Assembly: GCA_017441845.1 (NCBI GenBank)
Contig: JAFRVB010000005.1
Coordinates: 22,150 to 86,149, forward strand
Direction: 5' to 3'
DNA from: Bacilli bacterium
GTDB taxonomy: Bacteria; Bacillota_I; Bacilli_A; RF39; UBA660
Length of the DNA stretch: 64,000 nucleotides
The first letter of the stretch is position 1; every line of letters starts with the position of its first letter. This document shows, piece by piece, positions 7,981 to 39,929 of this stretch. The notes under the pieces were generated by a model. The model saw only the letters and a program-made list of their open reading frames with translations, did not search any database and was not told the DNA's origin. The translations under genes were made by a program, and so were the position numbers.

Positions 7981-7985
7981 TTTGT

Positions 7986-8256: not shown

Positions 8257-8285
8257 TTGCTTTTTACACCATTTTGTGGTATAAT
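8257..8285 (+). promoter_or_regulatory. Sigma-A-type promoter with an extended -10 element
   Basis: TTGCTT, a 17-nt spacer and TGgTATAAT; this lies inside the N-terminal part of the ORF-track call 8274..9935, so the true start of that gene is 8313. Confidence 0.6.
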
Positions 8286-8312
8286 CTATTCGATTCGAGG
8301 GGGAGTGAAATT

Positions 8313-9935
8313 ATGAACAAGAATTGGAAAATAGTTTTAATGGTAGTTGTTATGTTATTCACAGCAATATTTACTATTACTGATGTTAACGCTACAAATA
8401 CTATTAAGTTAACTAGCAAGTCTTATATTAAGGCTGGTGGAAGAAATCATGCTTGGTTTAAAACAAATGCTGGTTATGCATATTGTATAACTCCAAAGAA
8501 GACAGGTCCTAGTGTTGGTACTAAGATGCATCTTGATAAAGAGATCACTGGTACTAGTGGAAATGTACTTTATTACATGTTAAAGAATGATAATCCAAGC
8601 AATAAAAACAACTATGTTTATACACAAGCTGCTATCTGGAGATATTATAATAATTATGTTCCTTATAAATCAGGATCAACTGTAATATCTAAGAGTAAAA
8701 CTATAGTTAGCAAAGCTAAAGCTTCTAAAGCTACACCAAAGAGAGTTGGTATTACTGTAGTTAATAAATCAGGTTCTATGTCTATTAGTAGTGATAATAA
8801 ATATTATCAATCTGGTAAGTTTACTATTAAAACTACAAGTGGTACAAAATATACTGCAAGTGTTAGTGGAAAAGCTTATATTGTAAACGTTAGTGGAAAC
8901 AAGCAAACAACATTTAATTCTGGAGATAGTTTCTATGTTAGAGTAAATGATGCTGACGTTACTAAAAGTCTTACATTTACTATAACTATTAAAACTTCAG
9001 GAACTAATGAATATGTTAGAGTTTACTCAACTGGAAAGAGCTCTTATCAAAAATTAGTATTATTAGATAGTGAGAGTAAATCTGCATCTAAACAACTTAG
9101 TGTTGCAGTTACTCCAGTTAAGAGAGTTTGTACTTATGTTAATGGTAAGTACTATGGTAAAAACGGTACAGTAGTTTCAGAGGCTACATATAAAGATGAA
9201 TGTATGCCAAAATGTGAAGAAAAAGATGGTAAATACTACGATGATAAAGGTAACACTGTTGATAAGGTTACTTATATAAAAATTTGTAAAAAACCAGTTT
9301 GTTCTAAAGTTGATGATATCTTCTTTGGAAAAGATGGTGAAGTAGTTACTGAAGATGTATTTAGGGATCAATGTATGCCAAAATGTGAAGAAAAAGATGG
9401 TAAATACTTTGACGACAAAGGTAACGAAATTGATAAAATCAACTATTACAAAATATGTATAAAACCAACTTGTGAAAAAATAGATGATACTTACTTTGGT
9501 AAAGACGGAAGTATAGTTACTGAAGAAGAATTTAGTAATCAATGTATTCCTAAATGTATAGAAAAAGATGGAAAATATTATGATGATAAAGGTAATGAAA
9601 CTGACAAAACTACATACATCAAAGTATGTAAAAAACCAATTTGTGAAAAAGTAGATGATACTTATTTCGGTAAAAATGGTGATGTAGTTAGCGAATCTGA
9701 ATACAAAAAACAATGTGTTCATGTTTGTGAAGTTTATAATAACCAATATTATGGTAAAGATGGTCTAGTAGTAAGTAAAGAAACTTACAAAGATGAATGT
9801 GAACATGTAGTTGTTCCTGTTCCAAATACTGGTACTAGCTTATTAGAATCATTATTATATATTGTTTTGGGTACAGGTATTGTACTTGGTGGTTTAGGAT
9901 TTGTTGGTTACCAAAATAAACTTTCTGTAAAGTAA
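8313..9935 (+). CDS. Thioester-domain (TQxA-type) cell-wall-anchored adhesin with Cys-rich tandem repeats
   Basis: Signal peptide MNKNWKIVLMVVVMLF after the gagggggag RBS; Cys in NAGYAYCITPKK and the TQxAIW motif YVYTQAAIWRY; about 3.5 repeats of 57 aa each with 4 Cys; C-terminal PVPNTG, then a hydrophobic stretch and a basic tail. Confidence 0.7.
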   Translation: MNKNWKIVLMVVVMLFTAIFTITDVNATNTIKLTSKSYIKAGGRNHAWFKTNAGYAYCITPKKTGPSVGTKMHLDKEITGTSGNVLYYMLKNDNPSNKNNYVYTQAAIWRYYNNYVPYKSGSTVISKSKTIVSKAKASKATPKRVGITVVNKSGSMSISSDNKYYQSGKFTIKTTSGTKYTASVSGKAYIVNVSGNKQTTFNSGDSFYVRVNDADVTKSLTFTITIKTSGTNEYVRVYSTGKSSYQKLVLLDSESKSASKQLSVAVTPVKRVCTYVNGKYYGKNGTVVSEATYKDECMPKCEEKDGKYYDDKGNTVDKVTYIKICKKPVCSKVDDIFFGKDGEVVTEDVFRDQCMPKCEEKDGKYFDDKGNEIDKINYYKICIKPTCEKIDDTYFGKDGSIVTEEEFSNQCIPKCIEKDGKYYDDKGNETDKTTYIKVCKKPICEKVDDTYFGKNGDVVSESEYKKQCVHVCEVYNNQYYGKDGLVVSKETYKDECEHVVVPVPNTGTSLLESLLYIVLGTGIVLGGLGFVGYQNKLSVK

Positions 9936-9944
9936 TATGAAAAG

Positions 9945-9970: not shown

Positions 9971-10027
9971 TTGCTATAGTAGAGAGAAACCGAAATTTAT
10001 GGTATACTAAAGTGAGGAGTGATATTT

Positions 10028-13000: not shown

Positions 13001-16000
13001 AACTGGTATAACGTTAGAACTAAAGAAGTATTGATGCCTAACTTTGTATCTACAGTTGATTCTGGTAACTTTGTCGCAAGTTTAATTGTAGTTAGAGAAT
13101 ACTTAGAAGAAAATGGTGAAGATGACCTAGTTAAATTATGTGATAAATTAATTAAAAACACTAATTTCAAGAAATTATATACAAAGAAAAATGTCTTTAG
13201 TATAGGTTTTGATGAGAATGAAGGTAAACTTTCAGCATACAATTATAATAAGTTTGCATCTGAATCTCGTCTTACATCTTACTTAGCTATTGCTTTAGGG
13301 GAAATTCCTAATAAGCATTGGTTCTGTTTAGATAAGAGTTTAACAACTTATAGAGGTAGAAAAGGATTACTTTCTTGGAGTGGTACTGCTTTTGAATACT
13401 TTATGCCTTACTTATTTATGAAGAATTATCCTAATACTTTATTAGATGAGAGTTATCAATTCGCAAAATTCTGTAATAAAGAATATATTGAAAGTATCGA
13501 TAGAAACTTACCTTGGGGTATTAGTGAAAGTGCTTATAATGAGTTAGATAATTCACTAAACTACAAGTATTTAGCGTTCGCTACACCTCAATTAAAAGCT
13601 AAAGAGGATCAAGAAAACAGAATAGTTCTTTCACCATATTCATCATTAATGATTATGGATATGGCTCCTCAAGAAGTATATAGAAATATTCAAAAATTCA
13701 AAAAATTAGAGATGTTTTCTAAATACGGTTTCTATGAAGCATATGATTATGATAATAAAGGTATAGTTAAGAGTTACTTTGCTCATCACGTTGGTATGAG
13801 TTTAGTTGGTTTAGCTAATTACTTAAATTCTGATTGTATTAAAAATTATTTCCACAGTAATGTTAATATTAAAACTTACGATATATTATTAAAAGAAAAA
13901 GTACAAATTAAGACTTCTATAGATATGAAGATGGCTAAATATAAGAAATATGATTATCAAAAAGAAGAAGTTCAAAATGATATTAGATCTTTCAATTATA
14001 TTTCATTTATGCCTGAAGTATCAGTATTATCAAATAAGAAATATTGTTTACTTATGAATGATAGAGGAGATTCTTTCTCTAGATATAGAACTTTACAATT
14101 AAATAGATATCGTAAAGTTACTGAACAAGATTATGGTTTGTTCTTATATGTTAAAGATTTAGATAGTGGTTATGTTTTCAGTAATACATTCGCACCAATA
14201 AATAGAAAACCTGATAAATATGAAGTGGTATTTGCTTCAGATAAGATTAAATATCTTAGAAGGGATGGAGATATTTCTACTAAGACAGAAATTGTAGTTA
14301 CTAAGAATCATCATGCTGAAATTAGAAAAATTACTTTCAGAAATGATTCTGAAGAAACTAAACATTTAGAGTTAACTACTTATACTGAACCTATACTTAG
14401 TGAAGTTATGAATGATATTTCTCATAGAGTATTTAATAGTATGTTCTTATCTAGTAGTTTTGATGAAGAGACTAATTCTGTTATTGTTAAGAGAAAAACT
14501 AGAGATGAATCTAATATTAATAGTTATATGGTTAATAGATTAGTTATTCCTGGTAAGAATGATGGATATACTTATGATACTGAGAGAGTTCACTTTATAG
14601 GTAGAAATCACTTTACTAGTGATCCTATAGGTTTAAACCAAGAGTTAACTAACTATGTAGGAGATAATCTAGATCCAATTATTTCAATTAGGAACACTTT
14701 AGATTTAGAACCTAATAGTAGTACTGAAATATTTATATTATGTGGATTTGGTCGTAGTAGAGAACAAATTCATGATATTATTAACAATTATGATACTATT
14801 GATAAGATTGATAAAACATTTGAAGTTTCAACATTGATGAATTTAATTAATACTAAGAACATGCAACTTACTGGTAGTGAGATGAGAACATTTAATATTA
14901 TGTTAAATTACTTATATCAAACTACTAGAATTAGTGTTAATGAAGAAAGACAAGATTTATTAAGAAAGAATGCTTTAGGTCAATCTGGATTATGGAAATT
15001 TGGAGTTAGTGGAGATAGACCAATTATCTCTGTAGAAATTTCTGATATTTCTGATTTAGGATTTATTAATGAGATACTTAAGTGTTATGAGTATTATAAA
15101 AATAATTCTATCTTTGTAGATATTATCATTATTAATAATGAAAATTCTCAATATAAGAAAATTATTAAGAAAGAAGTAGAAGAAGAACTATATAGAATGT
15201 ATACAGTTAATAGTTTCTATCATACTCCAGGATCTGTGACTGTAATAGATAGTAATGATATTACTAGAGAAGATAAATCACTTCTTAATATGGTTCCTAG
15301 ACTTAGATTTGTTATTGAAGATCATAAATCTTTAAAAGAAACAGTTGATAAACTACAAAGAATAAATTCTGTTAGTGATTATGAAACTTATCGATTAGAA
15401 GATAATTTGAAATATGAAAATAAAGAAAAATTAGTCTTTGATAATGGATATGGTGGATTTACTAAGAACGGAACTGAGTATGTCGTTTATAAGATGGATA
15501 CACCTCAACCATGGAGTAACGTAATTGCGAATGAGAATTTTGGTACTGTAGTTACTAATAATGCTTGTGGATTTACTTATGCGATGAATTCTTCTGAATT
15601 TAAATTAACTTCATGGACAAATGATATGATTTGTAATGATAAGAGTGAAGGATTTAAATTTAATGGAAAAGTATTTGATCCTACTAAAGCAGTTCATGGA
15701 TTTGGATATTCTATCTTTACTAGTGAAACAGCTGAGTTAAAACATGAAGTTACAGAGTTTGTTCCTAGAGAAGATAGTATTAAAGTTTATATGATGAAAT
15801 TGGTTAATAAGACTGATAGTAAGAAAGATTTAGAAGTTGAGTATTACATAAATCCAGTACTTGGTAACTTTGAAGAAAAAACTACTCGTCATATATTATC
15901 TGAATTTATGGGTGATGATAATTTCTTAAAGATGAGAAATGTTTATAGTATCAATTATGGTGATATAAATGTATTTATGTCTAGTGACATTAAAATAGAT

Positions 16001-17683
16001 AATGCGGTTACTGAAAAGATGTTAGTTAAATCTATTAGTAGTAATATTAGTTTGGGTGCTCATGAAGAAATGGATTTAGTATATGTACTAGGTTGTGGAA
16101 TGAGTGATAAAGAGTGTATTAATCTTATCGAGAAATATACTAATTTAGCTAATTGTAAAAAAGCATTAAAAGATGTTAAAGATAATTGGAATAGAATACT
16201 AGGTACAGTTAAAGTTAAGAGTAAAGATCCAGCGTTTGACTATATGGTTAATGGTTGGTACTTATATCAAACTATGTCTAGTAGAATTATCGCTAAGACT
16301 GGATTCTATCAAGTCAGTGGTGCTTTTGGATATCGTGATCAGTTACAAGATGCGATGAATATTGCGATAGTAGCTCCTGACTTTACTAGAAATCAAATCT
16401 TAACTAATGCTGCTCATCAATTTAGTGAAGGAGATGTTCTTCACTGGTGGCATGAGAAAAATAAATTTGGATTAAGAAGTAGATTTAAAGATGATTATCT
16501 ATGGTTAATATATGCAACAATTTACTATTTAAGAATTACAGAAGATTTATCTATCTTAGAAGAAAAAGTGCCATTTATTGTTGGAGATAAACTAAGAGAG
16601 TATGAAAATGAAAAAGGAATAATATTCAATTATTCTAGAGAAGAAGTTACTCTTTTAGAGCACTTAGAAAGATCTTTAAATCTAGCTATGAATTCATTAG
16701 GTCGTCACAAATTACCTTTAATGGGTGGTGGAGACTGGAACGATGGTATGAATAAAGTTGGTATCAAAGGACGAGGTGAGTCTGTTTGGTTAGGATTCTT
16801 CTTGTATGAGATTATTGATGACTTTGTTAGAATGAGTAAGAAGTTTGGATTTGAAATTGATAGAGAAAAATATAGTGATTTCAATGATAAGTTAAAAGAA
16901 AACTTAAATAAGAAGGCTTGGGATAAAGAATGGTATTTAAGAGCTTTCTATGACAATGGTGATAAACTTGGTTCGGCTGAGAATACTGAGTGTAAAATTG
17001 ATTTAATTTCTCAAAGTTTCGCTATCCTTTCAAATGTTGCAGATCGTGAAAGAAGAGAAGAAGTTATAAGAGCTGTTGAAAGTAACTTGGTAGATGAGAA
17101 GAGTGGTATTATCAAATTACTTACTCCACCATTTGTTAAGAGCTTAAATAACCCTGGATATATCATGAATTATCCACAAGGTGTTAGAGAAAATGGTGGT
17201 CAATATACTCACAGTGTTGCTTGGTATTTGATGGCCTTAATCAAATCTGGTTATGGTGATAGAGCTTATCGTTATTATCAAATGATTAATCCAGCTACTC
17301 GTGCGATTGATCCAAAGACAGTTAAAAAATATAAAGTTGAACCTTATGTAATTTCTGCTGATATATATTCTGCTGATCATAGAGAAGGAAGAGGAGGTTG
17401 GACTTGGTATACAGGTTCAGCTGGATGGTTCTATAAAGTTGGTATCGTAGATATTCTAGGACTTGATAAGAGAGGCGATAAACTAAGAATTAAGCCTAGC
17501 CTTCCAGTTAAATGGGATAATTGTAAGATAACTTATAATTATATGGATACTGAGTATCATATTGAATATATTAAAGGTAAGAAAGAAGAACTTGTTTTAG
17601 ATGGCAAAGTTATCAATGGATATGAAATTGATCTTGTTAATGATAAAAAAGATCATGAAGTAACTTTATATATTAAGAAATAA
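10028..17683 (+). CDS. Giant membrane glycosyltransferase/glycoside-phosphorylase fusion (GT84-like domain plus C-terminal GH94), resembling cyclic beta-1,2-glucan synthase (Cgs/NdvB)
   Basis: ATG at 10028 after the gaggag RBS; TM clusters around aa 310-360 and 730-900; GT-A-like region with DxD (ITLDTDSKF); C-terminal GH94-type catalytic motif MGGGDWNDGM. Confidence 0.6.
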   Translation: MDIMKRFNQNYNEIENYYNFLVQKTKKHEFVGVINEWLIDNFYLLVEHKNGFMHEKKNIRKHNKLYNQLYPRINDIVVSKNYNITFKILCDELRNYQKTNKMYFTYKELDSLKIVLLCIYVNRLSVLCKEEHKKLMDIEEINRVISAHENKELVLSNFFSTKKIEENYHYIFELNNRLKELGSKTNKIFKELNTLLEENNISLKEIINDEYQNKMDNDILVSNIFNDLKEFTEFDSEDLFERVSNCEKLFLNDEVYDKMTIESKKLYRKQLLKLAKKNHTDELSYLESIMAKGTGDKYHIGFQLFKQKKYTLRIVLYLLSILISTCLVDYFICGFFLPSKYKIISFILLFIPIFELFIQVINEILIKTVKPVVIPKLDFSKGLPDDQKTMVVIPTIVGNEKKIKDMFDQLEMYYIMNNKSSNMYFTLLGDVKSSSKEVEDYDETISTYGEEYATKLNKKYGKELFYFIYRKRKFNPKEGEYLGFERKRGALLQFNKVLLHEMDKVTSGEYYNVNMLLDKDLDIKYVITLDTDSKFVLNTALNLVGAMAHPLNKPVLNKNKTKVVQGYGIMQPRVSIDIEDTNKSLYSQIFAGIGGFDTYTAIVPNVYQDNFGEGSFIGKGIYDLKVFDTVLNGTFPDNKILSHDLLEGNYIRCAYISDIELMDGFPAKFLPDMSRHHRWARGDAQIIGWIFGKVRNRRGTKVKNPINLLGRYKILDNIIRMFLQPSLLLVVILALLFSKYYLWWLAFVLLEVAIPIFFFLRSKMYKEDSDKTVIYYKNLFYGGKSLVLRCFIVFITLPYNTKMYMDAFFRTMYRLLISHKNLLNWITADEAEKTIKDTLPNYLRNFIFNFIVAIGLFVYFGYTFQVASLVVGILFMTAPFILYAISRDIDENKLELNEKEIDKVKDIAFRSFLYFKDNVREEFNYLVPDNYQDNREEKLDFRTSPTAIAYSLLSYICAERLDFIKISEAIENLRNILESVNGLKKWHGHLYNWYNVRTKEVLMPNFVSTVDSGNFVASLIVVREYLEENGEDDLVKLCDKLIKNTNFKKLYTKKNVFSIGFDENEGKLSAYNYNKFASESRLTSYLAIALGEIPNKHWFCLDKSLTTYRGRKGLLSWSGTAFEYFMPYLFMKNYPNTLLDESYQFAKFCNKEYIESIDRNLPWGISESAYNELDNSLNYKYLAFATPQLKAKEDQENRIVLSPYSSLMIMDMAPQEVYRNIQKFKKLEMFSKYGFYEAYDYDNKGIVKSYFAHHVGMSLVGLANYLNSDCIKNYFHSNVNIKTYDILLKEKVQIKTSIDMKMAKYKKYDYQKEEVQNDIRSFNYISFMPEVSVLSNKKYCLLMNDRGDSFSRYRTLQLNRYRKVTEQDYGLFLYVKDLDSGYVFSNTFAPINRKPDKYEVVFASDKIKYLRRDGDISTKTEIVVTKNHHAEIRKITFRNDSEETKHLELTTYTEPILSEVMNDISHRVFNSMFLSSSFDEETNSVIVKRKTRDESNINSYMVNRLVIPGKNDGYTYDTERVHFIGRNHFTSDPIGLNQELTNYVGDNLDPIISIRNTLDLEPNSSTEIFILCGFGRSREQIHDIINNYDTIDKIDKTFEVSTLMNLINTKNMQLTGSEMRTFNIMLNYLYQTTRISVNEERQDLLRKNALGQSGLWKFGVSGDRPIISVEISDISDLGFINEILKCYEYYKNNSIFVDIIIINNENSQYKKIIKKEVEEELYRMYTVNSFYHTPGSVTVIDSNDITREDKSLLNMVPRLRFVIEDHKSLKETVDKLQRINSVSDYETYRLEDNLKYENKEKLVFDNGYGGFTKNGTEYVVYKMDTPQPWSNVIANENFGTVVTNNACGFTYAMNSSEFKLTSWTNDMICNDKSEGFKFNGKVFDPTKAVHGFGYSIFTSETAELKHEVTEFVPREDSIKVYMMKLVNKTDSKKDLEVEYYINPVLGNFEEKTTRHILSEFMGDDNFLKMRNVYSINYGDINVFMSSDIKIDNAVTEKMLVKSISSNISLGAHEEMDLVYVLGCGMSDKECINLIEKYTNLANCKKALKDVKDNWNRILGTVKVKSKDPAFDYMVNGWYLYQTMSSRIIAKTGFYQVSGAFGYRDQLQDAMNIAIVAPDFTRNQILTNAAHQFSEGDVLHWWHEKNKFGLRSRFKDDYLWLIYATIYYLRITEDLSILEEKVPFIVGDKLREYENEKGIIFNYSREEVTLLEHLERSLNLAMNSLGRHKLPLMGGGDWNDGMNKVGIKGRGESVWLGFFLYEIIDDFVRMSKKFGFEIDREKYSDFNDKLKENLNKKAWDKEWYLRAFYDNGDKLGSAENTECKIDLISQSFAILSNVADRERREEVIRAVESNLVDEKSGIIKLLTPPFVKSLNNPGYIMNYPQGVRENGGQYTHSVAWYLMALIKSGYGDRAYRYYQMINPATRAIDPKTVKKYKVEPYVISADIYSADHREGRGGWTWYTGSAGWFYKVGIVDILGLDKRGDKLRIKPSLPVKWDNCKITYNYMDTEYHIEYIKGKKEELVLDGKVINGYEIDLVNDKKDHEVTLYIKK

Positions 17684-28295: not shown

Positions 28296-28768
28296 TGAAT
28301 AAGTTAATTGTTATTTCACCTGAAGGAGATGCATATAATAAGGAAATAGCTGAGAATTATGAACATGTTGATGCCTTAAAAGATTATTTAAATGAAAATA
28401 ATATTTCTTATAATGAAGAAATAAATAACGGTCATAAATTGTGTTTAGATTTATCTAGAAAAGGTTATTGGATCTTTAGAGTTGGTGGGGCTAGTATTAT
28501 GTATATTGGCAAACAAACCACTAATGAACAATTTGATTGGTATTCACATAATACTGATTTAATTGATCAAATGAATATTATTTCAGTAGCATCTTGGTAT
28601 GATACAGATTACGATAGAGGATATGATATTATTGAACAAGGTGGTATTGGATTTAATACTTTTGAACAAAGAAGAGATAGAATAAATGACCTTATAATTG
28701 AAAAAAATAAAGATTTTGAAAAGAATGGTAAAAAATCAAAATTTGGATTCTTTAGAAGAGCAAAATAA
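28295..28768 (+). CDS. Hypothetical protein translationally coupled to ileS
   Basis: Its ATG overlaps the ileS stop (TAATG); 157 aa with no recognised motif. Confidence 0.5.
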   Translation: MNKLIVISPEGDAYNKEIAENYEHVDALKDYLNENNISYNEEINNGHKLCLDLSRKGYWIFRVGGASIMYIGKQTTNEQFDWYSHNTDLIDQMNIISVASWYDTDYDRGYDIIEQGGIGFNTFEQRRDRINDLIIEKNKDFEKNGKKSKFGFFRRAK

Positions 28769-28792
28769 AGTTTTGCTCTTTTTTTATTAATA
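28768..28792 (+). terminator. Rho-independent terminator
   Basis: agagcaaaataaagttttgctcttttttt. Confidence 0.65.
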
Positions 28793-28808
28793 AAAATAAC
28801 TTTTTTTG

Positions 28809-28848
28809 TTGACAATTTATTTAGTTTAACTTATTATAGTGTGCTAAA
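28809..28848 (+). promoter_or_regulatory. Promoter module TTGACA-N17-TATTAT followed by a conserved AGTGTGCTAA box (copy 1)
   Basis: Exact -35 and -10 hexamers with a 17-nt spacer; a near-identical module sits at 34864-34903. Confidence 0.65.
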
Positions 28849-28896
28849 TGAGGGATACTATGCGTATCCAAAAAAATTTTCATAGGGGGAAAGGTT

Positions 28897-31800
28897 ATGA
28901 AAAAGAAAAAGGGCATTTTAAAAAGTAAGAAAAAACTTACTGGTGTCATAGTTACAAGTTTGCTTGTGCTTGTAGCTGCACTTGGTTTTTTGATGCCAAA
29001 CAATTTTAAAAGTATTCTAACAAATGTTAGAAATGTTTTTGCTGCTGGTGATGAACCTGTAATCAACAAAGCAAGAACAAATAACGGTGATGGAACTTAT
29101 AAGCTTTCATTATCTGTGAAAGGGGATGCAGAAAAGAAACCTCAAAAGGCAAATGTTATTGTTGTTTTTGATACTTCTAGTAGTATGAATAGAAGTACTG
29201 GTCAAACAGAGACTACTTATACACCAACTTCATCTACTGGAACAGGGTTATATGGTTTAGTTGATGGTGAGTATGTTCCATTAACTCGTACTTCTGAACA
29301 AACAGGACCATGGTGGAATCCACAAACAACATATCACTTTTGGTATGATGGTGTTGAATATACTGGACAACGTTATAATAGACAAGAAGCAAATCAGTCA
29401 AGATTACAAGCTGCTCAAGCTGCAACAAATAGTTTAGCTAACTCTTTACTTTCAAATAATGGAAGAGATGGTAATCCAGATGATACTATTGAGATTGCTT
29501 TAGTAGATTTTGCTAATACTGCTGTAATTGCACAAGCACCAACAACAGATTACGATTCATTTGCTGCTGTAGTTAATAGTCGTGATGCAGGTAATAATAA
29601 CAGAGGTACTAACTGGGAAGCTGGATTTAGAACTGCATTGAATGTGAATTTCAATGATAATGATCCTACATATGTGATTTTTGTATCTGATGGAAATCCA
29701 ACATATTATTTACAAGATCCACAAAATACTCAACGTGGTGGAACTGGAGGAGAGACTACAGATAATATAAATACTTCATATAATCAAGCTGTTCCTGCTG
29801 CACAAGGAGTTGTTAATGCTGGTTATAATCTATATACAATCGGTATTTATGGTAGTGTTGATAGAATGGAAGACATTACTACTGATGCAGGTGCTCCAGC
29901 TGATCATTATTATTCTGCTGCTGATACAGCTGCATTACAAGAGGCATTTGCTGAAATCTTAGCTAAGATAGAAATGTCTGGAATTGGTAGTGCTGTAATT
30001 AATGATGGAACTACTAATCAAGTTTCTACTTCTACTGGTATAGTTGAACTATTAGAAGTTGATGAAAATAGTTATAAGTATTATAAAAATGGAGAAGAAT
30101 GGACTGATCCAGAAAATGATGATGAGATTGCTGCTCATTTAGTTAATGGTGTAGTTAAATGGGATTTATCTAAACTAGGTGTTTTAGAAAATGATGTTAC
30201 TTATGAAGTTACATTTGATGTTTATCCTTCCCAAACTACATATGACTATATTGCTGATTTAGAAAATGGTGTAATTGAATATAGTGATTTACCAACAGAA
30301 GTACAAAAATATTTACATCAAAGTGGTACTGCATTAGAAGGAGAAGGATATAGTTATTCATTAGATACTAATACAGAAGATGTAACATTAACATATGATG
30401 ATACAAGAGATGAAGAAGGACCTCAAACTATTGATTTCAATAAATTGAATTCTGTTGCAACTACTTCTGATACTATCTCAATTTCTAAAGAATGGGATAA
30501 CTCAATTGATAGTAGAACAAAAAGACCAGTTTCTGTTAGAATCTTAAAAACAAATGATGATGGAGAATTCCAAAATTATTGCTTTACTGATAGTTGTACT
30601 GCAGAATTAAATCAAAGTAATAACTGGTCATTAAGTGATATTCATATTGCTACTGGTTTAGCAAGATTATCAGGAAACACATTAACAGTTTTAGATACTG
30701 GTCATGATTATAAATTTGATGAGTTAGGATCTGAAGCTTATAACTGGGAATTAGAAACAGAGACTGTTCACCCTATGTTAATAAATGGTGTTTTAACAAA
30801 ACTAATCCTAGTTGAAGAAGATGCTCCTGATATGGGATCAGATAGTTATAAAACTATTGATGGTAAAGAATACTATAAATTAGATAATGGAAAAGTTTAT
30901 GTTAAATCTAATGATGGAGCTAACATTAAAGCTGAGAATCATCGTAGAAGTAATTTAAATATTAAGAAAAATGTTACTGGAGAAAATGCAAATCCAAATG
31001 ATAAATTTGAATTTACTATTAAAGTAACTCAATTAGATGAAAATGGAGATGCTATTGCTGATGACACAACAACAATCAATGATGATATTTGGTTCTCAAT
31101 TTGTGATACATCAATTGATTCAACTTGTGTAAGTCCAGATAGCTTAGTTAAAGATGATAGTCTTGTTACTGGAGCTCAAAAAGAAATAAGAGATGGAGCT
31201 TGGACAGGATACTATTACACAACAAATGATAGTGAAGTAAAAGTAAACTTAAAAGATAAATATAATATAAGATTTACTAATTTAATTTCAAATACTGACT
31301 TTAGTGTAGTTGAATCTAATAAAGCTAATTATGAATTAGATAAGATTGAGACTACTAGTGGATTTGAATCTGAAAATGATAGTAAAACTATAGATAAAAA
31401 TGCTAAGAAGATTACTGGTCATATTGGTGAAAATAATACTTCTTATCAAGTAGAATATACTAATAAGAATACTGTACCTGAAACTGTTGAAGCAACAGTT
31501 AAGAAAGTATGGGATGACGCTGATAACCAAGATGGTAAGAGACCAACAAGTTTAGAAGTTACATTAAGTAATGGAGATAGTGTTACATTAAATGAAGGTA
31601 ATAACTGGACAGCTACAGTTACAGGATTACCAAAATATATAAATGGTGAAGAAGCTACATATACATGGACTGAAGGAACTTTACCTGAAGGTTATTCAAT
31701 GACTTCAAATACAACTTCAGGAACTATTACTACAATAACTAATAGTCATACTCCAGAAGTAACTGAAGTAAGTGGTACAAAAACTTGGGATGATAAAGAT

Positions 31801-34800
31801 AATATTGATGGTGAGAGACCAGAATTTATCACTGTTAGATTATTAGCTAATGGAGATGAAATTGATTCTCAAACAGTTAGAGCTAAAGAAGATGGAACTT
31901 GGAGTTATTCATTCCCTAACTTACCTAAGTATGAAAATGGAGAAGAAATTAATTATACAGTTACTGAAGATGTAGTTAAATACTATACAACTGAAGTAGA
32001 TGGTTATAATATAACTAATACTCATACATTATTTACTACTGATGTTACAGTTAATAAAACTTGGGATGACGCTAATAACCAAGATGGTAAGAGACCAGGT
32101 TCTGTTACTGTAGTATTAAAAGCTGATGGAGTAGCTATCGAAGATACTGCTACATTAAGTGATAGTAATAATTGGAGTCATACTTGGGAAGATTTAGATA
32201 GAATGAATCTTTCTACTAAACAAAAAATTGTTTATACTGTTGAAGAATTACAAGTTACTGATTATACAAGTGATATTTCAGATCCTGTTATTATAGAACA
32301 AGAAACTGAAACAGACTTTGTATCTACATGGAGTTTTGATGTAACAAACTCTCATACACCAGAAGAAACAGAAGCTACTGTTAAGAAAGTATGGGATGAT
32401 GCTAATAACCAAGATGGTAAGAGACCAGCAAGTTTAGATGTTACATTAAATACTGGAAAAACAGTTACATTAAATGAAGGTAATAGTTGGACAGCAACTG
32501 TTACAGGATTACCTAAATATGCTAATGGACAAGAAATTAAATATTCATGGACTGAAGGAAGTTTACCTGAAGGTTATACAATGACTTCAAATACAACTTC
32601 AGGAACTATTACTACAATAACTAATAGTTATACTCCTGAAGAAACATCTGCTACTGTTAAGAAAGTATGGGATGATGCTAATAACCAAGATGGTAAGAGA
32701 CCAGCAAGCTTAGAAGTTGCATTAAGTAATGGTACTAAAGTAACATTAAGTGATAGTAATAACTGGACAGATACTGTTACAGGATTACCTAAATATGCTA
32801 ATGGACAAGAAATTAAATATTCATGGACTGAAGGAAGTTTACCTCAAGGTTATACAATGACTTCTAATACAACTCAAGGAACTATTACTACAATAACTAA
32901 TAGTCATACTCCAGAAGAAACAGAAGCAACAGTTAAGAAAGTATGGACAGATGCAAATAACCAAGATGGTATTAGACCAGGAAGCTTAGAAGTAACATTA
33001 AGTAACGGAGATAGTGTTACATTAAATGCAAGTAATGGTTGGACACAAACTGTTACAGGACTTCCTAAATATGCTAATGGACAAGAAATTACATATACTT
33101 GGAACGAAGAATCTGTTCCAACTGGATACGAATTAGTTTCTAATAAAACTGAAGGAACTGTTACTACAATTACTAATAAACATACTCCAGAAGTTAGAGA
33201 TGTAAATGTTAAGAAAGAGTGGATTGATGATGGTAATTCTCAAAATACTAGACCAACTTCTGTTACAGTTACATTAAAAGCTAATGGAGAAACTGCAGAT
33301 GTTGATGTTCCAACAGTTACATTAAACGAAAGTAATGGATGGCATTATACATGGACAGGTGTAGATAAGAAAGCAAATGGAGAAGATATTGAATATACTG
33401 TAGTAGAAAATCCAGTTGCTAATTATGATACAGATTATGATGAAACTGATGATGGTATAGTTGTTATTAATACTATTCAAGATCTATCAAAAGATATTCC
33501 TGTTGAAAAAGTATGGGATGATGATAATGATAGAGATGGATTAAGACCTGGAACATTAAAAGTAACTATTACTGGTAGAGTTGGAGATACTATTATTAAA
33601 GGAGCGTCTCAAACAGTTACTCTATCTAATAGTACAAGTTGGAAAGGTACATTTACTAACTTACCTGTATTCAATAAGGGAAAATTAATTAGTTATACTA
33701 TTGAAGAAGAAGATGTTTCTGGATATTCAGTAGTTGAAGAATCTACTAATACTTCTAATGAAGCTGCTGGATTCAAGATAACTAATAAACATGATCCTGT
33801 TAAGATTAAAATTTCAGGTGTTAAAAAATGGGATGATGATGAAAACAGAGATGATGCTAGACCTGGAAGCATTACAGTTAATTTATTAAAGAATGGACAA
33901 TCATTTAAGTCTCAAACTGTAACAGCAGGTGATGATGGTAATTGGTCATTCGAATTTGATGATTTATATAAATGTGAAGGTGGACAAGATATTGTTTATA
34001 CATTAACTGAAGAAACAGTTGATGGATATACAGCTGTAATTGGACAAGTAACTGAAGATACTGAAAATCTTAATAATTACACAGTTACAGTTACTAATAC
34101 TCATACACCTGAAACTATTACATATAAAATTACTAAGTCTTGGGATGATTTAGATAATAATGATGGTGTAAGACCAGCAAGTGTTACTGTTAGATTAAAA
34201 GCTGATGGAGTTGAAATTGCTTCACAAGTATTAAATGAAAGTAATGGATGGACTTATACATTCACTAATTTACCTAAATATAAACAAGGTTCAGTAGGAG
34301 TATTAATTCAATATACAATTGTTGAAGATGAAGTTGAAGGCTATGATGCTAGTTTCACTGATATAGTTAGTGATAAGACTACTACAGCAATTGAAAATAC
34401 AATTACTAATAAACATACTCCAGAATTACATGAAGATATCAAAGTTACTAAGACTTGGGTAGATGAAAATAATAAATATGGTGTAAGACCTGAAAAGATT
34501 ACTGTTAGACTATATGCTAATGGTGAAGAAGTTGATGTTTGTACATTAACTGCTGCTAATGGATGGACTTATACTTGGACAGGTCTACTTAAATATAAAG
34601 ATGGAGTAGAAATAATTTATACAATTTCTGAAGATGCTGTAAGAAATTATAGTACTAAGATAGATGGCTATAATATAACTAATACTTATAATGGTCCACA
34701 TGGAGAAATAGTACCTCCAAATACAATGGTTAGTGGAAGTGCTCTAGGTACTGCAACTAATACAAGTAATGGAGGAAACTTCAGTGTACTATTCCTATTA

Positions 34801-34848
34801 ATCTTAGGAATTGTAGGATTAATGTTCAGAAAAGAAGCAAATAATTAA
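28897..34848 (+). CDS. Giant surface adhesin with an N-terminal VWA domain and about 13 CnaB-type repeat domains
   Basis: Signal peptide; MIDAS motif VIVVFDTSSSM; repeats carrying the WDDANNQDGKRP signature; C-terminal VPPNTM, then a hydrophobic segment and RKEANN (atypical sorting signal). Confidence 0.8.
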   Translation: MKKKKGILKSKKKLTGVIVTSLLVLVAALGFLMPNNFKSILTNVRNVFAAGDEPVINKARTNNGDGTYKLSLSVKGDAEKKPQKANVIVVFDTSSSMNRSTGQTETTYTPTSSTGTGLYGLVDGEYVPLTRTSEQTGPWWNPQTTYHFWYDGVEYTGQRYNRQEANQSRLQAAQAATNSLANSLLSNNGRDGNPDDTIEIALVDFANTAVIAQAPTTDYDSFAAVVNSRDAGNNNRGTNWEAGFRTALNVNFNDNDPTYVIFVSDGNPTYYLQDPQNTQRGGTGGETTDNINTSYNQAVPAAQGVVNAGYNLYTIGIYGSVDRMEDITTDAGAPADHYYSAADTAALQEAFAEILAKIEMSGIGSAVINDGTTNQVSTSTGIVELLEVDENSYKYYKNGEEWTDPENDDEIAAHLVNGVVKWDLSKLGVLENDVTYEVTFDVYPSQTTYDYIADLENGVIEYSDLPTEVQKYLHQSGTALEGEGYSYSLDTNTEDVTLTYDDTRDEEGPQTIDFNKLNSVATTSDTISISKEWDNSIDSRTKRPVSVRILKTNDDGEFQNYCFTDSCTAELNQSNNWSLSDIHIATGLARLSGNTLTVLDTGHDYKFDELGSEAYNWELETETVHPMLINGVLTKLILVEEDAPDMGSDSYKTIDGKEYYKLDNGKVYVKSNDGANIKAENHRRSNLNIKKNVTGENANPNDKFEFTIKVTQLDENGDAIADDTTTINDDIWFSICDTSIDSTCVSPDSLVKDDSLVTGAQKEIRDGAWTGYYYTTNDSEVKVNLKDKYNIRFTNLISNTDFSVVESNKANYELDKIETTSGFESENDSKTIDKNAKKITGHIGENNTSYQVEYTNKNTVPETVEATVKKVWDDADNQDGKRPTSLEVTLSNGDSVTLNEGNNWTATVTGLPKYINGEEATYTWTEGTLPEGYSMTSNTTSGTITTITNSHTPEVTEVSGTKTWDDKDNIDGERPEFITVRLLANGDEIDSQTVRAKEDGTWSYSFPNLPKYENGEEINYTVTEDVVKYYTTEVDGYNITNTHTLFTTDVTVNKTWDDANNQDGKRPGSVTVVLKADGVAIEDTATLSDSNNWSHTWEDLDRMNLSTKQKIVYTVEELQVTDYTSDISDPVIIEQETETDFVSTWSFDVTNSHTPEETEATVKKVWDDANNQDGKRPASLDVTLNTGKTVTLNEGNSWTATVTGLPKYANGQEIKYSWTEGSLPEGYTMTSNTTSGTITTITNSYTPEETSATVKKVWDDANNQDGKRPASLEVALSNGTKVTLSDSNNWTDTVTGLPKYANGQEIKYSWTEGSLPQGYTMTSNTTQGTITTITNSHTPEETEATVKKVWTDANNQDGIRPGSLEVTLSNGDSVTLNASNGWTQTVTGLPKYANGQEITYTWNEESVPTGYELVSNKTEGTVTTITNKHTPEVRDVNVKKEWIDDGNSQNTRPTSVTVTLKANGETADVDVPTVTLNESNGWHYTWTGVDKKANGEDIEYTVVENPVANYDTDYDETDDGIVVINTIQDLSKDIPVEKVWDDDNDRDGLRPGTLKVTITGRVGDTIIKGASQTVTLSNSTSWKGTFTNLPVFNKGKLISYTIEEEDVSGYSVVEESTNTSNEAAGFKITNKHDPVKIKISGVKKWDDDENRDDARPGSITVNLLKNGQSFKSQTVTAGDDGNWSFEFDDLYKCEGGQDIVYTLTEETVDGYTAVIGQVTEDTENLNNYTVTVTNTHTPETITYKITKSWDDLDNNDGVRPASVTVRLKADGVEIASQVLNESNGWTYTFTNLPKYKQGSVGVLIQYTIVEDEVEGYDASFTDIVSDKTTTAIENTITNKHTPELHEDIKVTKTWVDENNKYGVRPEKITVRLYANGEEVDVCTLTAANGWTYTWTGLLKYKDGVEIIYTISEDAVRNYSTKIDGYNITNTYNGPHGEIVPPNTMVSGSALGTATNTSNGGNFSVLFLLILGIVGLMFRKEANN

Positions 34849-34870
34849 TATTTGCTTTTTTTGTTGACAA
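34848..34870 (+). terminator. Rho-independent terminator
   Basis: aagcaaataattaatatttgcttttttt. Confidence 0.6.
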
Positions 34871-34903
34871 ATAAGGTTAAAACCTTTATTATAGTGTGCT
34901 AAT
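34864..34903 (+). promoter_or_regulatory. Promoter module TTGACA-N17-TATTAT followed by the AGTGTGCTAA box (copy 2)
   Basis: Identical -35, spacer length, -10 and downstream box as at 28809-28848. Confidence 0.65.
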
Positions 34904-34946
34904 TAGACACATTGTTGTTTAAAATAGATTGATAGGAGGGTTACGG

Positions 34947-36398
34947 TTGAAAAGAATTATAAGTATTATAATTTTGTTTGTTGCGTTCATTTTTATGTTT
35001 AGTTCTTTTAATGTTAATGCCGAAGAATTAACTACTGATGTAGTCAGTGAAGAACAAGTAGCTAATGCTGAAAATGAGCAAGTTGAAGAAACTTCTACTG
35101 TAAATGTAACAGAGGAAACTCCTAATGATGTGGAATCTAATCCTACTCAAAGTGTTACTACAGAAGTACATAAAGTATCTGTAATTATCAATAAGACCGA
35201 TGAAGAGGGTAATCCATTAAGTGGAGCTACTCTACAAATTATAGATGCTGATGGTAATGTAGTTGAGGAATGGGTTTCTGATGGTACTGCTCATGAAGTT
35301 TTATTACCAGAAGGTAATTATACTTTACATGAAGTTTCAGCGTCTGAAGGCTATATAAAAGCCTCTGATAAGACATTTACTGTTAAAGTAGAAGTTGTTG
35401 ATTTAGATGCTGGTGTTGATTGGTCTGAAACTCCTTGTAATCATTATGGTGGAACTCCACTATATTACGTAGACTTTAATGGTCATAAAGAAGAAGTTTA
35501 TTGTATTAATCAAGACTGGGAAACACCTGATGAAAACTCTAATTATGATGGGGCAGTTTTAACTCCAACTGATATTAGAGACTATACACAACAAACTGTA
35601 GATGTTGATGCTAAAGGTAATAAAGAAAAGAAAGATATATCTGATCAAAGTTTAACTTCTCAAGAGTTATATAATAAGATTTTAGATATTATTTATCATC
35701 GTCAATTAGCGACTGATTTGTTTCCAGATTTAACCGAAGCAGAAATAAGATATATTACTGAAAATGCTCTTAAAAACTATACAAATGCTGGTTTAACGAG
35801 AGTACAAGGTGGAATTAGAAATTTAAATAATTTACCAGAAGGAGTTACTGATTATTGGTATAATGAAGATAAGGGTTATTATCAATACTTGTATACTCAT
35901 TTTAGAAGTTTTGTATATCTACCAGATGCACCACTAGGAAAAGATATTTTTACTACTAGTGTAGGCAATGGAGATGCTTTTGGTACCTTAGCTAGACATT
36001 GGAGTTCAGCACATGGTGCTAAAAATAGTCAAGCAGTAAGAGATAAAATTGCTAGATATTATGAATTATATCAATATCTAATTAGTGATACTGATCATCA
36101 TCCAAGTGATATGCATTTATACATTTTCTCAACAAATGATAAGGCATTAGATTGGTCTCAATATGACTTTGATGAAGGTACTTATCAAAACTTATTAGGA
36201 GTTAGATGGTATAATCCATATGATGAAGATAATCAAGTAGAATTAACATTAGTTAATTATAAAAAAGATACTGGTAAGACTGAAATAGTTCCACCAGTAA
36301 CTGGAATTAGTTCTAATAATACTTCTAATAGTTATCTATTAATTGTATTATTAAGTGTACTTGGATTTAGTCTAAGTTTAAAGAGAAGATTTAATTAA
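34947..36398 (+). CDS. Secreted or wall-anchored protein with an N-terminal CnaB-like domain and a C-terminal PPVTG sorting signal (possible pilin or adhesin partner)
   Basis: Probable TTG start after the taggaggg RBS; signal peptide; CnaB-like segment; C-terminal VPPVTGISS, then a hydrophobic stretch and KRRFN. Confidence 0.6.
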   Translation: MKRIISIIILFVAFIFMFSSFNVNAEELTTDVVSEEQVANAENEQVEETSTVNVTEETPNDVESNPTQSVTTEVHKVSVIINKTDEEGNPLSGATLQIIDADGNVVEEWVSDGTAHEVLLPEGNYTLHEVSASEGYIKASDKTFTVKVEVVDLDAGVDWSETPCNHYGGTPLYYVDFNGHKEEVYCINQDWETPDENSNYDGAVLTPTDIRDYTQQTVDVDAKGNKEKKDISDQSLTSQELYNKILDIIYHRQLATDLFPDLTEAEIRYITENALKNYTNAGLTRVQGGIRNLNNLPEGVTDYWYNEDKGYYQYLYTHFRSFVYLPDAPLGKDIFTTSVGNGDAFGTLARHWSSAHGAKNSQAVRDKIARYYELYQYLISDTDHHPSDMHLYIFSTNDKALDWSQYDFDEGTYQNLLGVRWYNPYDEDNQVELTLVNYKKDTGKTEIVPPVTGISSNNTSNSYLLIVLLSVLGFSLSLKRRFN

Positions 36399-36452
36399 TC
36401 TTTTCTTTTTTTATGATCTGTGGTATAATATACGGCAATCGGAGGGGTTATT

Positions 36453-37151
36453 ATGAGAAATAGATTATGGAAGATAATTAATCTATTAGTAATAATATTA
36501 GTTGTATTTACTTTTTATTTTAATCGTACTGTTGAAGTTAAATCTATTGATAATAATAAAACTGTTATTATAGATAAAATAGATAATAAGAGTAAAGATA
36601 TTAATATTAAAGAATTAAGAAAACAGTATCATAATAATGATATTATGGCTTATATTGAGATACCTGGTGTAACTAAGAGTATGGTTCTTCAAAGTAGTAA
36701 TAATGATTATTATTTAAATCATGATGTTAATAAAAAAGAAGATATTAAAGGTACTGTTGTTTTAGATTTTAGAAATAAAATAAATGATAAAAAACTATTA
36801 TTATATGGACATAGTGGTAAAGAGAAAGATTTACCTTTCTTGAAACTTAATAATTATGTAAAAAAAGATTATTGGGAAAAACATAATACAATTAACTTAT
36901 ATACATTAGATGGTAAAAAAGAATATAAGATATTTTCATCTTATATAGAGACTAATGATTATGATTATGTTAACTTAAAGAGTTTTAATGGGCTTAGTTG
37001 GTATGAACATATTAATAAATTAAAAAATAAATCTTATTATAATACAGATGTTAAATTAGATAAGAATGATAAAATAATTATTTTACAGACATGTAGTATT
37101 AATAATCAGGGTTATCAAAAATATCATTTAGTAATTGGTAAAGAAGTATAA
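36453..37151 (+). CDS. srtB: Class B sortase (SrtB-like)
   Basis: N-terminal TM; LYGHSG (His); IILQTCS (TLxTC catalytic Cys); 232-aa size; a TGtGGTATAAT promoter-like element lies upstream. Confidence 0.75.
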   Translation: MRNRLWKIINLLVIILVVFTFYFNRTVEVKSIDNNKTVIIDKIDNKSKDINIKELRKQYHNNDIMAYIEIPGVTKSMVLQSSNNDYYLNHDVNKKEDIKGTVVLDFRNKINDKKLLLYGHSGKEKDLPFLKLNNYVKKDYWEKHNTINLYTLDGKKEYKIFSSYIETNDYDYVNLKSFNGLSWYEHINKLKNKSYYNTDVKLDKNDKIIILQTCSINNQGYQKYHLVIGKEV

Positions 37152-37204
37152 TTTTATACTTCTTTTATTGTGAATTTATGATATTATTATAATAGAGGTG
37201 GATT

Positions 37205-37954
37205 ATGAAGGGTAATGTTATAATGAAGAAAAATATTATAATTATGGCTTTATTTATAGTTATATTTATTTTATGTATTGTGTTAGCTATAAGTATGAAT
37301 AAAAAGTGTGATGTTAGTACTCCGTTTAATGATAATGAAGTAAAGACAGAAAACTTAGAGACTACTAATGAAGAAGTACAAAATTTATTAACTAATATTA
37401 CTACAGGTATAGGTGAACCTTGTGGTTTAAGTAGTTATTATTTTACTAATAATAAAGTTAGTATTTCTGATTTAGGTGGAGATGTTTTATTTAAAATAGC
37501 TGTTAAACAGATAGTTGGAGATGATTATAGAGTTAATTTCTCTTTAGATAGTGTTACAGCTAAACTTAAAAATACTTTTGGTAAAAAAATACAATTTAAA
37601 GCTCAAACATATAATATTATTCCTATATACAATTATAACTATGATACATCAACATATGAGTATCAAAATGATACAGGTATGGTAAAAGTATGTACAGGAG
37701 ATAAAAATCTTGTTAGAGTGGTTAAAGCAGAAAAAAAAGATAATAAATTAGAAGTACAAGTTAGAGTAATATTTAATAAGAGCGGTAATTATTATTCTGA
37801 TCCTACTTTTAGTAATCAATTAACTAATTTAGAAAAAATAGGAAATACTATTAGTATGAGTGATACTAATATGAGACAAGGATCTTTATATAAAATAATC
37901 TTTAATAAAGAAAATAATCATTATATCTTTATTTCATCTGATTTAGTTAGATAG
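37205..37954 (+). CDS. Hypothetical membrane-anchored protein
   Basis: N-terminal TM; no recognised motifs. Confidence 0.4.
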   Translation: MKGNVIMKKNIIIMALFIVIFILCIVLAISMNKKCDVSTPFNDNEVKTENLETTNEEVQNLLTNITTGIGEPCGLSSYYFTNNKVSISDLGGDVLFKIAVKQIVGDDYRVNFSLDSVTAKLKNTFGKKIQFKAQTYNIIPIYNYNYDTSTYEYQNDTGMVKVCTGDKNLVRVVKAEKKDNKLEVQVRVIFNKSGNYYSDPTFSNQLTNLEKIGNTISMSDTNMRQGSLYKIIFNKENNHYIFISSDLVR

Positions 37955-37963: not shown

Positions 37964-38383
37964 ATGAGAGATCCTGAGTTTATTTCTTTAAGGAATAAAG
38001 TATTAATTGGGCTAGGAATATTTATTGTATTTATTACTTTGATAATAATGATAATGTATAGATTCCTAGGTAATTATAGTGGTAAAGTATATGAAGATGT
38101 AGTAGCTGATAAAACTTTTGTGTTCTTACAAGTTAGTGATAACTGTAAGATGTGTGATAGTGTTATTAATGTTTTAGATGAAAGAGATATTAAATATGAG
38201 ATACTTACTATGTCTTTAAAAGATAGACATGAAGATGTTTATAAAGTGTTAAAAGTTGATAGTAGAAATATTAAAGCACCTGGTTTGTTTTATATAAATA
38301 AGGGTGAAGTTGTTTCTTATTTGAGTGATATAGAAAAAGAAGATGAACTTAATGATTTTATAGATAATTATTTAGGAGGTTAG
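37964..38383 (+). CDS. Membrane-anchored glutaredoxin/thioredoxin-like CxxC protein
   Basis: N-terminal TM; CKMC motif in a Grx-like context (FVFLQVSDNCKMCDSV). Confidence 0.45.
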   Translation: MRDPEFISLRNKVLIGLGIFIVFITLIIMIMYRFLGNYSGKVYEDVVADKTFVFLQVSDNCKMCDSVINVLDERDIKYEILTMSLKDRHEDVYKVLKVDSRNIKAPGLFYINKGEVVSYLSDIEKEDELNDFIDNYLGG

Positions 38384-39852: not shown

Positions 39853-39929
39853 GTCTGCGTAGCTCAGCTGGATAGAGCAATCGCCTTCTAAGCGATCGGT
39901 CAGGCGTTCGAATCGCCTCGCGGACACCA
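39853..39929 (+). tRNA. tRNA-Arg (anticodon TCT)
   Basis: Acceptor GTCTGCG/CGCGGAC; anticodon loop CTTCTAA; T-loop TTCGAAT; CCA end. Confidence 0.8.

Follow-up and report, generated by a model that had tools for sequence, protein, structure and literature searches.

We asked how the large surface proteins of an uncultured gut Bacilli lineage might be attached to the cell wall by a sortase that lacks the arginine generally assigned to the active site of these enzymes. The question is raised by a locus in a 64,000-nucleotide stretch of contig JAFRVB010000005.1 (positions 22,150 to 86,149; hereafter the window, in whose coordinates all positions below are given). The sequence comes from a metagenome-assembled genome (MAG) labelled 'Bacilli bacterium', has a base composition of ~27% G+C and carries nearly all of its genes on the plus strand. 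The locus consists of three neighbouring plus-strand open reading frames (ORFs) at 28897-34848 (1,983 aa), 34929-36398 and 36453-37151 (232 aa), and these correspond to the layout proposed in the initial annotation of this DNA, namely a giant protein with a VWA domain and CnaB repeats, a second CnaB protein and a sortase. Exact matches at NCBI carry the names 'Cna B-type domain-containing protein' for the giant protein (MBQ6538890.1) and 'class B sortase' for the enzyme (MBQ6538892.1). The gene identities at the locus are ordinary, and the NCBI annotation, which is generic, was already in place. The analysis adds a family-wide PPxT sorting signal with a free P1' residue, a large subfamily of LQTC sortases without the arginine, and a Cpa-like protein with Glu in place of the thioester Gln, the last two being new. 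Our reading of the locus, to which we assign a probability of roughly 0.65, is that its adhesins, which carry PPxT-x signals, are anchored to the cell wall as monomers by a class B sortase devoid of this arginine.

The sortase gene (36453..37151, plus strand) encodes a 232-residue enzyme with an N-terminal membrane anchor. It is a class B sortase and is closest to SrtB of C. difficile. Its sole NCBIfam match was TIGR03064 (116.2 bits, E 1.4e-33, below the curated cut-off discussed later), and it scored 32.3 bits against Pfam Sortase, above the cut-off of 26.6. The best sequence matches in the PDB were structures of C. difficile SrtB, with E 3.5e-25 when the sequence was searched alone and ~1e-35 when a 32-sequence profile was used, followed by SrtB of B. 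anthracis, Listeria and S. aureus. An AF2 model with a predicted local distance difference test score (pLDDT) of 84.2 contained an N-terminal membrane helix, the sortase barrel and helices at residues 52-59 and 183-192 (beta6/beta7 loop). When this model was searched with Foldseek, ranks 1-19 were all class B (E 2e-17 to 2.5e-11), with C. difficile SrtB among the top fold matches, and class A and C structures appeared from 7e-8. The initial annotation had described the enzyme as class-B-like and not class C, and had named an assignment to class A or C as the outcome that would speak against its view; that outcome did not occur, since the hidden Markov model (HMM), the PDB sequence search and Foldseek all gave class B.

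The active site of this enzyme departs from published descriptions. Sortase active sites have been described as a strictly conserved Cys-His-Arg (PMC3019223), and the arginine, placed at the start of beta8, has been termed essential or strictly conserved (PMC4371152, PMC3019223, PMC5118464). The window enzyme has the histidine (His120, in YGHS, 36810-36812) and the cysteine (Cys214, in ILQTC, 37092-37094), and from there it reads ...IIILQTC-SINNQGYQK-YHLVIGKEV, with no Arg anywhere in residues 215-232. The initial annotation had quoted LQTCS and overlooked this absence. The reference sequences were those of C. difficile (...LSTCTYEFDDARMVIHGRL) and B. anthracis (...LSTCDYALDPEAGRLVVHAKLV), as given in the PDB search output, together with a canonical sortase on the related contig L075. 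Kang et al. (2020) reportedly described S207A and R217A mutants of the C. difficile enzyme (Cd-SrtB), deposited as 6kyc and 6kyd. The R217A entry 6kyd fixes which residue is R217 of Cd-SrtB. In an L-INS-i alignment with the three canonical sortases, R217 stood opposite Tyr224 (37122-37124) of the window enzyme, with the next Gly/Ala-Lys/Arg pair in register, and beta8 of the AF2 model begins at residue 224. A HMMER pairwise alignment to Listeria SrtB placed the Arg opposite His225 rather than Tyr224; there is no Arg in either register.

The absence of the arginine extends across the family. His120 and Cys214 were invariant in the 32 sequences of the profile and in 187 unique family sequences, as was Thr213, and position 212 was Gln in 186 of the 187. 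In this same set, position 224 was Tyr in 155, Phe in 21, Asn in nine and Arg in one; the flanking position 223 was mostly Lys (147; Arg in 14), and position 225 was Gln (87), Leu (43) or His (13). A profile search of 1.84 billion representative proteins returned 271 clusters at E <= 1e-30. Among the best 150 representatives of 50%-identity clusters, 143 had an xTC motif, which was QTC in 138 and STC in five. Arg in its canonical context was missing from 136 of the 138 QTC representatives and kept by all five STC representatives, counts that are not phylogenetically independent. As judged from these alignments, two coupled changes define the subfamily: the Ser at C-2 has become Gln, and the Arg has become Tyr or Phe. 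More than 130 clusters at 50% identity make up this distinct group of LQTC class B sortases, and searches of the accessible literature found no description of Arg-less or LQTC sortases. Contig L075 carries a canonical class B sortase (LSTC, GRKVIHA; 1468-2454, minus strand) as well as an LQTC-type paralogue (9839-10606, plus strand), which shows that the canonical and LQTC types coexist in at least some genomes.

How might such an enzyme position its substrate? The role of the sortase Arg is still debated; recent work attributes to it mainly substrate positioning via the P4 and P3 carbonyls, and forms the oxyanion hole from the Thr before the Cys and backbone amides (PMC11987632). Since the Thr and the backbone-amide oxyanion hole are retained in the LQTC enzymes and the role of the Arg would be one of positioning, we infer that Gln212 (37086-37088), with Tyr224 and/or Lys223, replaces the substrate-positioning hydrogen bonds of the Arg. 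Gln212 lies on beta7 at i-2 from the Cys and should therefore face the same side. The full proposal, that the LQTC lineage has been rewired and yet is fully active without the triad Arg, that Gln positions the substrate and that PPxT is read with an almost free leaving-group residue, is a tentative one, which we would hold at a little under even odds.

The sorting signals provide the second line of evidence. The giant protein ends in EIVPPNTMVSG...FSVLFLLILGIVGLMF-RKEANN, in which PPNTM (34714-34728) opens a signal spanning 34714..34845 that continues with an 18-residue spacer, a hydrophobic segment and the RKEANN tail. The second protein ends in EIVPPVTG...SYLLIVLLSVLGFSLSL-KRRFN, and a thioester-domain protein 19 kb upstream of the locus (8274..9935) ends in VVPVPNTG...-QNKLSVK. 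A scan of one genome per species with the sortase alignment yielded 80 related loci. Nearly all belong to MAGs of uncultured gut bacteria that bear the labels Bacilli, Erysipelotrichaceae, Tenericutes or Mycoplasma; goat, sheep, rumen, rabbit and chicken are among the sources, as is the human gut (Hadza and Nepali). In these loci, 34 large sortase-adjacent proteins end in PPxT-x, namely PPQTG (12), PPNTG (10), PPVTG (3), PPKTG (3) and PPHTG (2), with PPDTG, PPNTK, PPNTS and PPHTD found once each. A few other sortase-adjacent signals were VPNTG, IPDTG, IPNTG and NPNTG, and none of the large proteins next to the sortase carried LPXTG.

Within these signals, the residue after the Thr varies. The Met of PPNTM was kept in six of six cluster members, which have an identical tail, and in the orthologue at L002. 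An assembly or frameshift error as the origin of PPNTM was rejected, since the six cluster members, which come from several contigs, and L002 all share this tail. At L081, a syntenic locus whose sortase is 64% identical, the giant orthologue has PPNTF and the homologue of the second protein has PPVTM. Giant orthologues elsewhere have PPNTG, PPNTK or PPNTS, with PPNT intact throughout. A similar latitude is seen in 120 homologues of the second protein, where NPxTG (38), PPxTG (29), SPxTG (15) and LPxTG (1) were found and in about one quarter the Thr is followed by S, A, I, N, M, L, Y, V or D. That PPNT is kept while the next residue varies indicates that PPxT is under selection and the leaving-group residue is not. 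Judged by these motifs, the giant adhesin with PPNTM is most likely a variant substrate. The initial annotation had left this open between a variant substrate and a membrane-retained protein, and the orthologues, which keep PPNT and vary G/M/F/K/S, favour the former and disfavour the latter. It had also remarked on the unusually long spacer of the giant adhesin. Between the Thr and the hydrophobic segment there are indeed 18 residues, the longest spacer of 46 signals, the median being 9 residues and the remaining ones having 2 to 14; the same length recurs only in the L002 orthologue.

The part of the sortase that would read the prolines of these signals is conserved. In Cd-SrtB, Tyr167 and Ser163 of the beta6/beta7 loop contact PPKTG, and Tyr167 stacks on the P4 Pro (PMC5118464). 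In this loop, ETNDYDY of the window enzyme corresponds to ESDYDY of C. difficile SrtB and to TTDFYY of B. anthracis SrtB, which recognises NPKTG. The stretch NDYDYV aligns with SDYDYL of C. difficile, and Tyr172 (36966-36968), the equivalent of the P4-Pro-contacting Tyr167, is invariant. Together with the 34 sortase-adjacent PPxT-x proteins, the conserved P4-Pro loop bears out the earlier suggestion of signals like the (S/P)PxTG ones of C. difficile. The system thus resembles that of C. difficile SrtB (CD2718; substrates CD2831 and CD0386) in its PPxTG-type signals on CnaB-repeat adhesins and in the N-terminal membrane anchor and similar size of the enzyme. It differs in that identity between the two enzymes is ~31-32%, that LSTC and Arg217 there are LQTC and Tyr224 here, and that Gly at P1' there is a variable residue in this lineage. 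Furthermore, C. difficile is reported to have a single sortase (PMC4155245), whereas several paralogues per genome are possible in this lineage: two such sortase loci occur in several genomes, and in L001 and L080, which belong to one MAG, each sortase stands next to its own giant adhesin.

The giant adhesin (28897..34848, plus strand) is composed of a signal peptide, a VWA domain with a metal-ion-dependent adhesion site (MIDAS), DUF7604, DUF7601, a stalk of 11 CnaB units and the C-terminal sorting signal. Pfam gave Cna_B 733 bits in 11 stretches and VWA_2 36.1 bits (cut-off 27), along with DUF7604 and DUF7601. The protein has the DxSxS...T...D pattern of a MIDAS in addition to the above-threshold VWA_2 match, with DTSSS at aa 92-96 (29170..29184) and with Thr238 and Asp265, assigned by motif position, as candidate further MIDAS residues downstream. 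The CnaB array occupies aa 866-1935 (31492..34701) and comprises 11 units with the pattern K.W.D..N.DG.RP; the signature K-x-W-x-D-x-x-N-...-R-P occurs in 11 copies at aa 870-1852, three of which are exactly WDDANNQDGKRP. One extra degenerate CnaB-like unit lies near aa 535, so that the earlier count of about 13 repeats was slightly too high. At the DNA level, repeats 4-6 form a tandem repeat (32352-33193; 276 bp x 3.1, 84% matches). At least five independent contigs gave a giant protein of the same length with the same C-terminus, and neither the repeat number nor PPNTM is therefore an assembly artefact. For the N-terminal 868 aa no sequence relative was found among PDB structures. Homologues of the VWA-containing N-terminal part are present in 24 of the related loci, and many of them adjoin the sortase, either upstream or downstream. 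The combination of a VWA domain with MIDAS DxSxS, a CnaB Ig-like stalk and a C-terminal sorting signal is shared with RrgA, GBS104, SpaC and Cna; unlike these, the giant adhesin has a much longer stalk (11 CnaB), PPNTM instead of LPXTG, and no class C sortase.

The second protein (34947..36398, plus strand) proved to have a larger domain that the initial annotation, which had recognised a secreted 484-aa protein with a CnaB-like domain, overlooked. The CnaB-like domain was confirmed and the length became 483 aa. The ORF opens at 34929 and has 489 codons from its first TTG; a perfect AGGAGG at 34934-34939 lies 7 nt before TTG 34947, and this Shine-Dalgarno spacing sets the start of the 483-aa protein. 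Database homologues are 481-483 aa long. The protein has a signal peptide, an acidic disordered linker, a CnaB2/SpaA domain (35172-35393), a module with a thioester-domain (TED) fold (35406-36272), PPVTG (36291-36305), a hydrophobic segment and the KRRFN tail. In the numbering of the 489-codon ORF, which is used for all residues of this protein, residues 82-155 match CnaB2 of S. pyogenes FbaB, the SpyCatcher domain (E 5e-13), and also Pfam SpaA. An AF2 model was built on 36 homologues (pLDDT 80, and >90 over most of residues 200-400). Its top Foldseek match was S. pyogenes Cpa/Spy0125 (E 6.5e-12), SpyCatcher superposed on it at a root-mean-square deviation of 0.7 A with 38% identity, and C. 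perfringens TED 5a0d (E 1.7e-5, target TM 0.75) and the N-terminal TED of Cpa (4c0z) were also matched, the two TEDs at E of about 1e-5. According to this model, the second protein is Cpa-like, combining an isopeptide-type Ig domain with a thioester-domain fold. Two members of the isopeptide triad of the CnaB2 domain, Lys K89 and Glu E135, do not vary among homologues, and D158 lies in a VEVVD strand that, by our reading, resembles IVMVD of SpyTag; this position is D, E or N among homologues. Unlike SpyCatcher, the domain is intact and not split in the window protein, and its isopeptide triad is a predicted one.

The thioester-fold module (aa 160-448) has the TED-type Cys, C192 in VYCINQ, which is invariant among homologues. 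It has T-E-x-A-L-K-N with an invariant Glu where canonical TEDs, Cpa included, have the thioester Gln in TQxA[IV]W. As the sequence stands, a Cys-Gln thioester cannot form at this site. The protein also falls short of TEDs by sequence in other respects: Pfam TED scored 13.5 bits, below the cut-off of 22, and a family-profile search of the PDB with the large domain found no TED, so that the fold search alone links them. Other invariant residues in the domain are H172, H257, H357, H362, H391 and a second Cys, C170. The window offers a direct comparison in the thioester-domain protein upstream, which reads YTQAAIWRY where the 483-aa protein reads ITENALKNY. This upstream ORF (8274..9935, plus strand) has a probable start at ATG 8313, after GGGGGAG, giving 540 aa, and passes Pfam TED (25.6 bits against the cut-off of 22), with Cys71 and Gln118 (TQAAIW) as the candidate thioester pair. 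With VPNTG at 9819-9833 it is a candidate third substrate, and the earlier description of a VPNTG thioester adhesin at 9.8 kb held. Its stalk is built of about eight Cys-rich units of ~28 residues (...C.P.C..KDGKYYDDKGN...) and is not Ig-like.

How would the parts of the locus work together? The two secreted adhesins would be made with PPxT-x, a hydrophobic segment and a basic tail, and the 1,983-aa protein would present its metal-dependent VWA binding domain at the end of the 11-CnaB stalk. The membrane-anchored sortase would read mainly the P4 and P3 prolines through the DYDY beta6/beta7 loop, Cys214, aided by His120, would cut after the Thr, and each adhesin would be transferred to peptidoglycan as a monomer. 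Because P1' would not be restricted to Gly in this lineage, PPNTM could work as a variant signal, and the VPNTG thioester adhesin at 8.3-9.9 kb would probably be served by the same sortase. Several points weigh against this scheme. The sortase scores below the curated TIGR03064 cut-off (116.2 vs 153.75). The papers cited above deem the Arg essential or strictly conserved, and hence an Arg-less enzyme could be impaired or have another activity; moreover, the roles suggested for Gln212, Tyr224 and Lys223 derive from sequence position and from the analogy that other sortases offer in their substrate groove. The giant adhesin might be processed differently, given the Met at P1' and a spacer that is the longest among the 46 signals. 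Finally, the analysis covered 64 kb of the genome, and there may be further sortases that do the actual anchoring.

These points could be taken to mean that the LQTC enzymes are dead or repurposed as chaperones, hydrolases or release factors, and that another sortase, or none, anchors the adhesins. Such a view would account for the loss of an Arg held to be essential and for the score below the class B HMM cut-off, and at least one related contig, L075, also has a canonical Arg-containing class B sortase. However, the invariance of His120, Thr213 and Cys214 in 187 sequences and of Gln212 in 186 argues for a selected active site, and time and again the enzymes occur in close linkage with proteins that bear complete tripartite signals. 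If the Arg is a substrate positioner and the oxyanion hole lies elsewhere, as recent work has it (PMC11987632), it could be replaced. We consider a loss of sortase activity quite improbable. A narrower proposal accepts that the sortase anchors the PPVTG and VPNTG proteins, and holds that the giant adhesin is no substrate and is kept in the membrane by its C-terminal segment. In favour of this are the Met, at a position that is Gly in most family members, the 18-residue spacer, and a report that putative C. difficile substrates differ in subcellular location (PMC5569036). Yet PPNT is kept in every orthologue while the next residue is G, M, F, K or S, as expected if cleavage after the Thr is selected; both substrates in L081 are non-Gly (PPNTF and PPVTM), and membrane retention would leave the sortase there without any adjacent substrate. 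Class B sortases are also known to accept non-Gly residues at P1', as in the signals NPQT-N of S. aureus and NPKS-S of Listeria (PMC11987632). Retention of the giant adhesin in the membrane therefore seems to us unlikely.

The last alternative concerns the product rather than the enzyme. The initial annotation had called the layout pilus-like, and one can picture a short FCT-type pilus in which the class B sortase joins the Cpa-like protein to a lysine of the giant stalk, or the reverse, before wall anchoring. Proteins that combine VWA and CnaB domains are typical pilus tip adhesins, and the three genes are adjacent and co-oriented. The best structural match of the 483-aa protein is Cpa (Spy0125), the tip adhesin of a pilus assembled by the class B sortase Spy0129, which takes Pro/Val-rich signals of the VPPTG/EVPTG type (PMC3019223). 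As in the S. pyogenes FCT pilus locus, a class B sortase gene adjoins a Cpa-like isopeptide/thioester-fold protein and the motifs are Pro-rich and non-LPXTG, although their register differs (VPPTG/EVPTG there, PPxTG here). Unlike that locus, the one in the window has no major pilin candidate, no basal pilin and no class C sortase or SipA-like signal-peptidase gene, the two ORFs downstream of the sortase have no Pfam or NCBIfam match, and the sortase has no equivalent of Arg229. A [YFW]PK/YPK-type motif was found in none of the three proteins. Conserved gene order that takes in the 483-aa protein and both downstream ORFs was seen only in L001 and L002 from the genome scan and in L081 and L082 from a homologue look-up; as the 483-aa protein is confined to these nearest relatives, the module conserved elsewhere is one giant VWA-CnaB adhesin with one sortase. 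An 11-repeat CnaB stalk, moreover, gives length without polymerisation. The pilus-like layout was therefore not sustained: a pilus is the least probable of the alternatives, very doubtful as matters stand, and anchoring of monomers to the wall is much more likely.

A terminator-like hairpin at 28754..28782 (plus strand; a 13-pair stem followed by a T-run) closes the upstream ileS-g157 unit and lies directly before a promoter-like site at 28809..28837 (plus strand; TTGACA-17-TATTAT, 11/12), upstream of the giant adhesin gene. A second promoter-like site with the same match (34864..34892, plus strand; TTGACA-17-TATTAT, 11/12) is upstream of the 483-aa gene. Both are consensus matches; they were the best two sites in an 11-kb scan and have identical hexamers and spacing, one for each adhesin gene. 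The same scan found no terminator-like site between the giant gene and the sortase. For the c-di-GMP riboswitch control of C. difficile substrates no counterpart was detected in the window by Rfam, which at gathering thresholds returned only tRNAs.

Two further ORFs follow the sortase. The one directly downstream (37205-37954, 249 aa) has an N-terminal membrane anchor and no Pfam or NCBIfam match, and is conserved only in L002, L081 and L082. The next (37964-38383, 139 aa) is membrane-anchored and has a CKMC (CxxC) motif. The window copy has no Pfam or NCBIfam match, and its homologues in L002, L081 and L082, which occupy the same place two genes past the sortase, give a faint Glutaredoxin signal in Pfam. 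One possible function of the 139-aa protein is that of a thiol-disulfide oxidoreductase outside the cytoplasm, acting for the Cys-dependent sortase or the Cys-rich adhesin. Both ORFs were considered as parts of the core locus and dropped, being syntenic in the closest relatives only.

Among the related loci, FtsW/RodA-type genes (...GLIPVTGVTLPFISYGGSSLL...), which the regular expression for sorting signals had caught as false positives, and a MraY-like gene lie near the sortase in L014, L015, L018, L028, L029, L042, L053 and others. These neighbours fit with a peptidoglycan wall in MAGs labelled 'Tenericutes/Mycoplasma'. Elsewhere in the window, an ORF of 2,554 aa at 10019-17683, with GH94 catalytic, GH94 supersandwich and glucoamylase-like domains, resembles a cyclic beta-1,2-glucan synthase or phosphorylase and lies between the thioester adhesin and housekeeping genes. 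Nearly the whole of a 716-aa protein at 2978-5128 is made up of DUF285/BspA-type leucine-rich repeats (465 bits for Pfam DUF285). With an anchor at its N-terminus and without a C-terminal sorting signal, it is another likely surface protein, anchored differently. The window also holds six tRNA genes (7737-8144; 5172-5244, minus strand; 39853-39926), four of which are clustered just upstream of the thioester adhesin gene.

If the proposal for the LQTC enzymes is true, the Arg would be dispensable in a natural sortase lineage, and the family would provide a new ligase scaffold with PPxT specificity and a permissive P1' position. A PPxT-specific sortase that tolerates Met, Phe, Lys, Ser and Gly at P1' would be orthogonal to SrtA, and a natural enzyme with defined cognate peptides makes the question of the sortase Arg directly testable. 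For the organisms themselves, (S/P)PxTG-type sorting is the dominant mode beside these sortases in a broad group of uncultured Bacilli from ruminant and human gut, and the giant VWA-CnaB and Cpa-like proteins are the main candidate host- or matrix-binding adhesins of these Bacilli.

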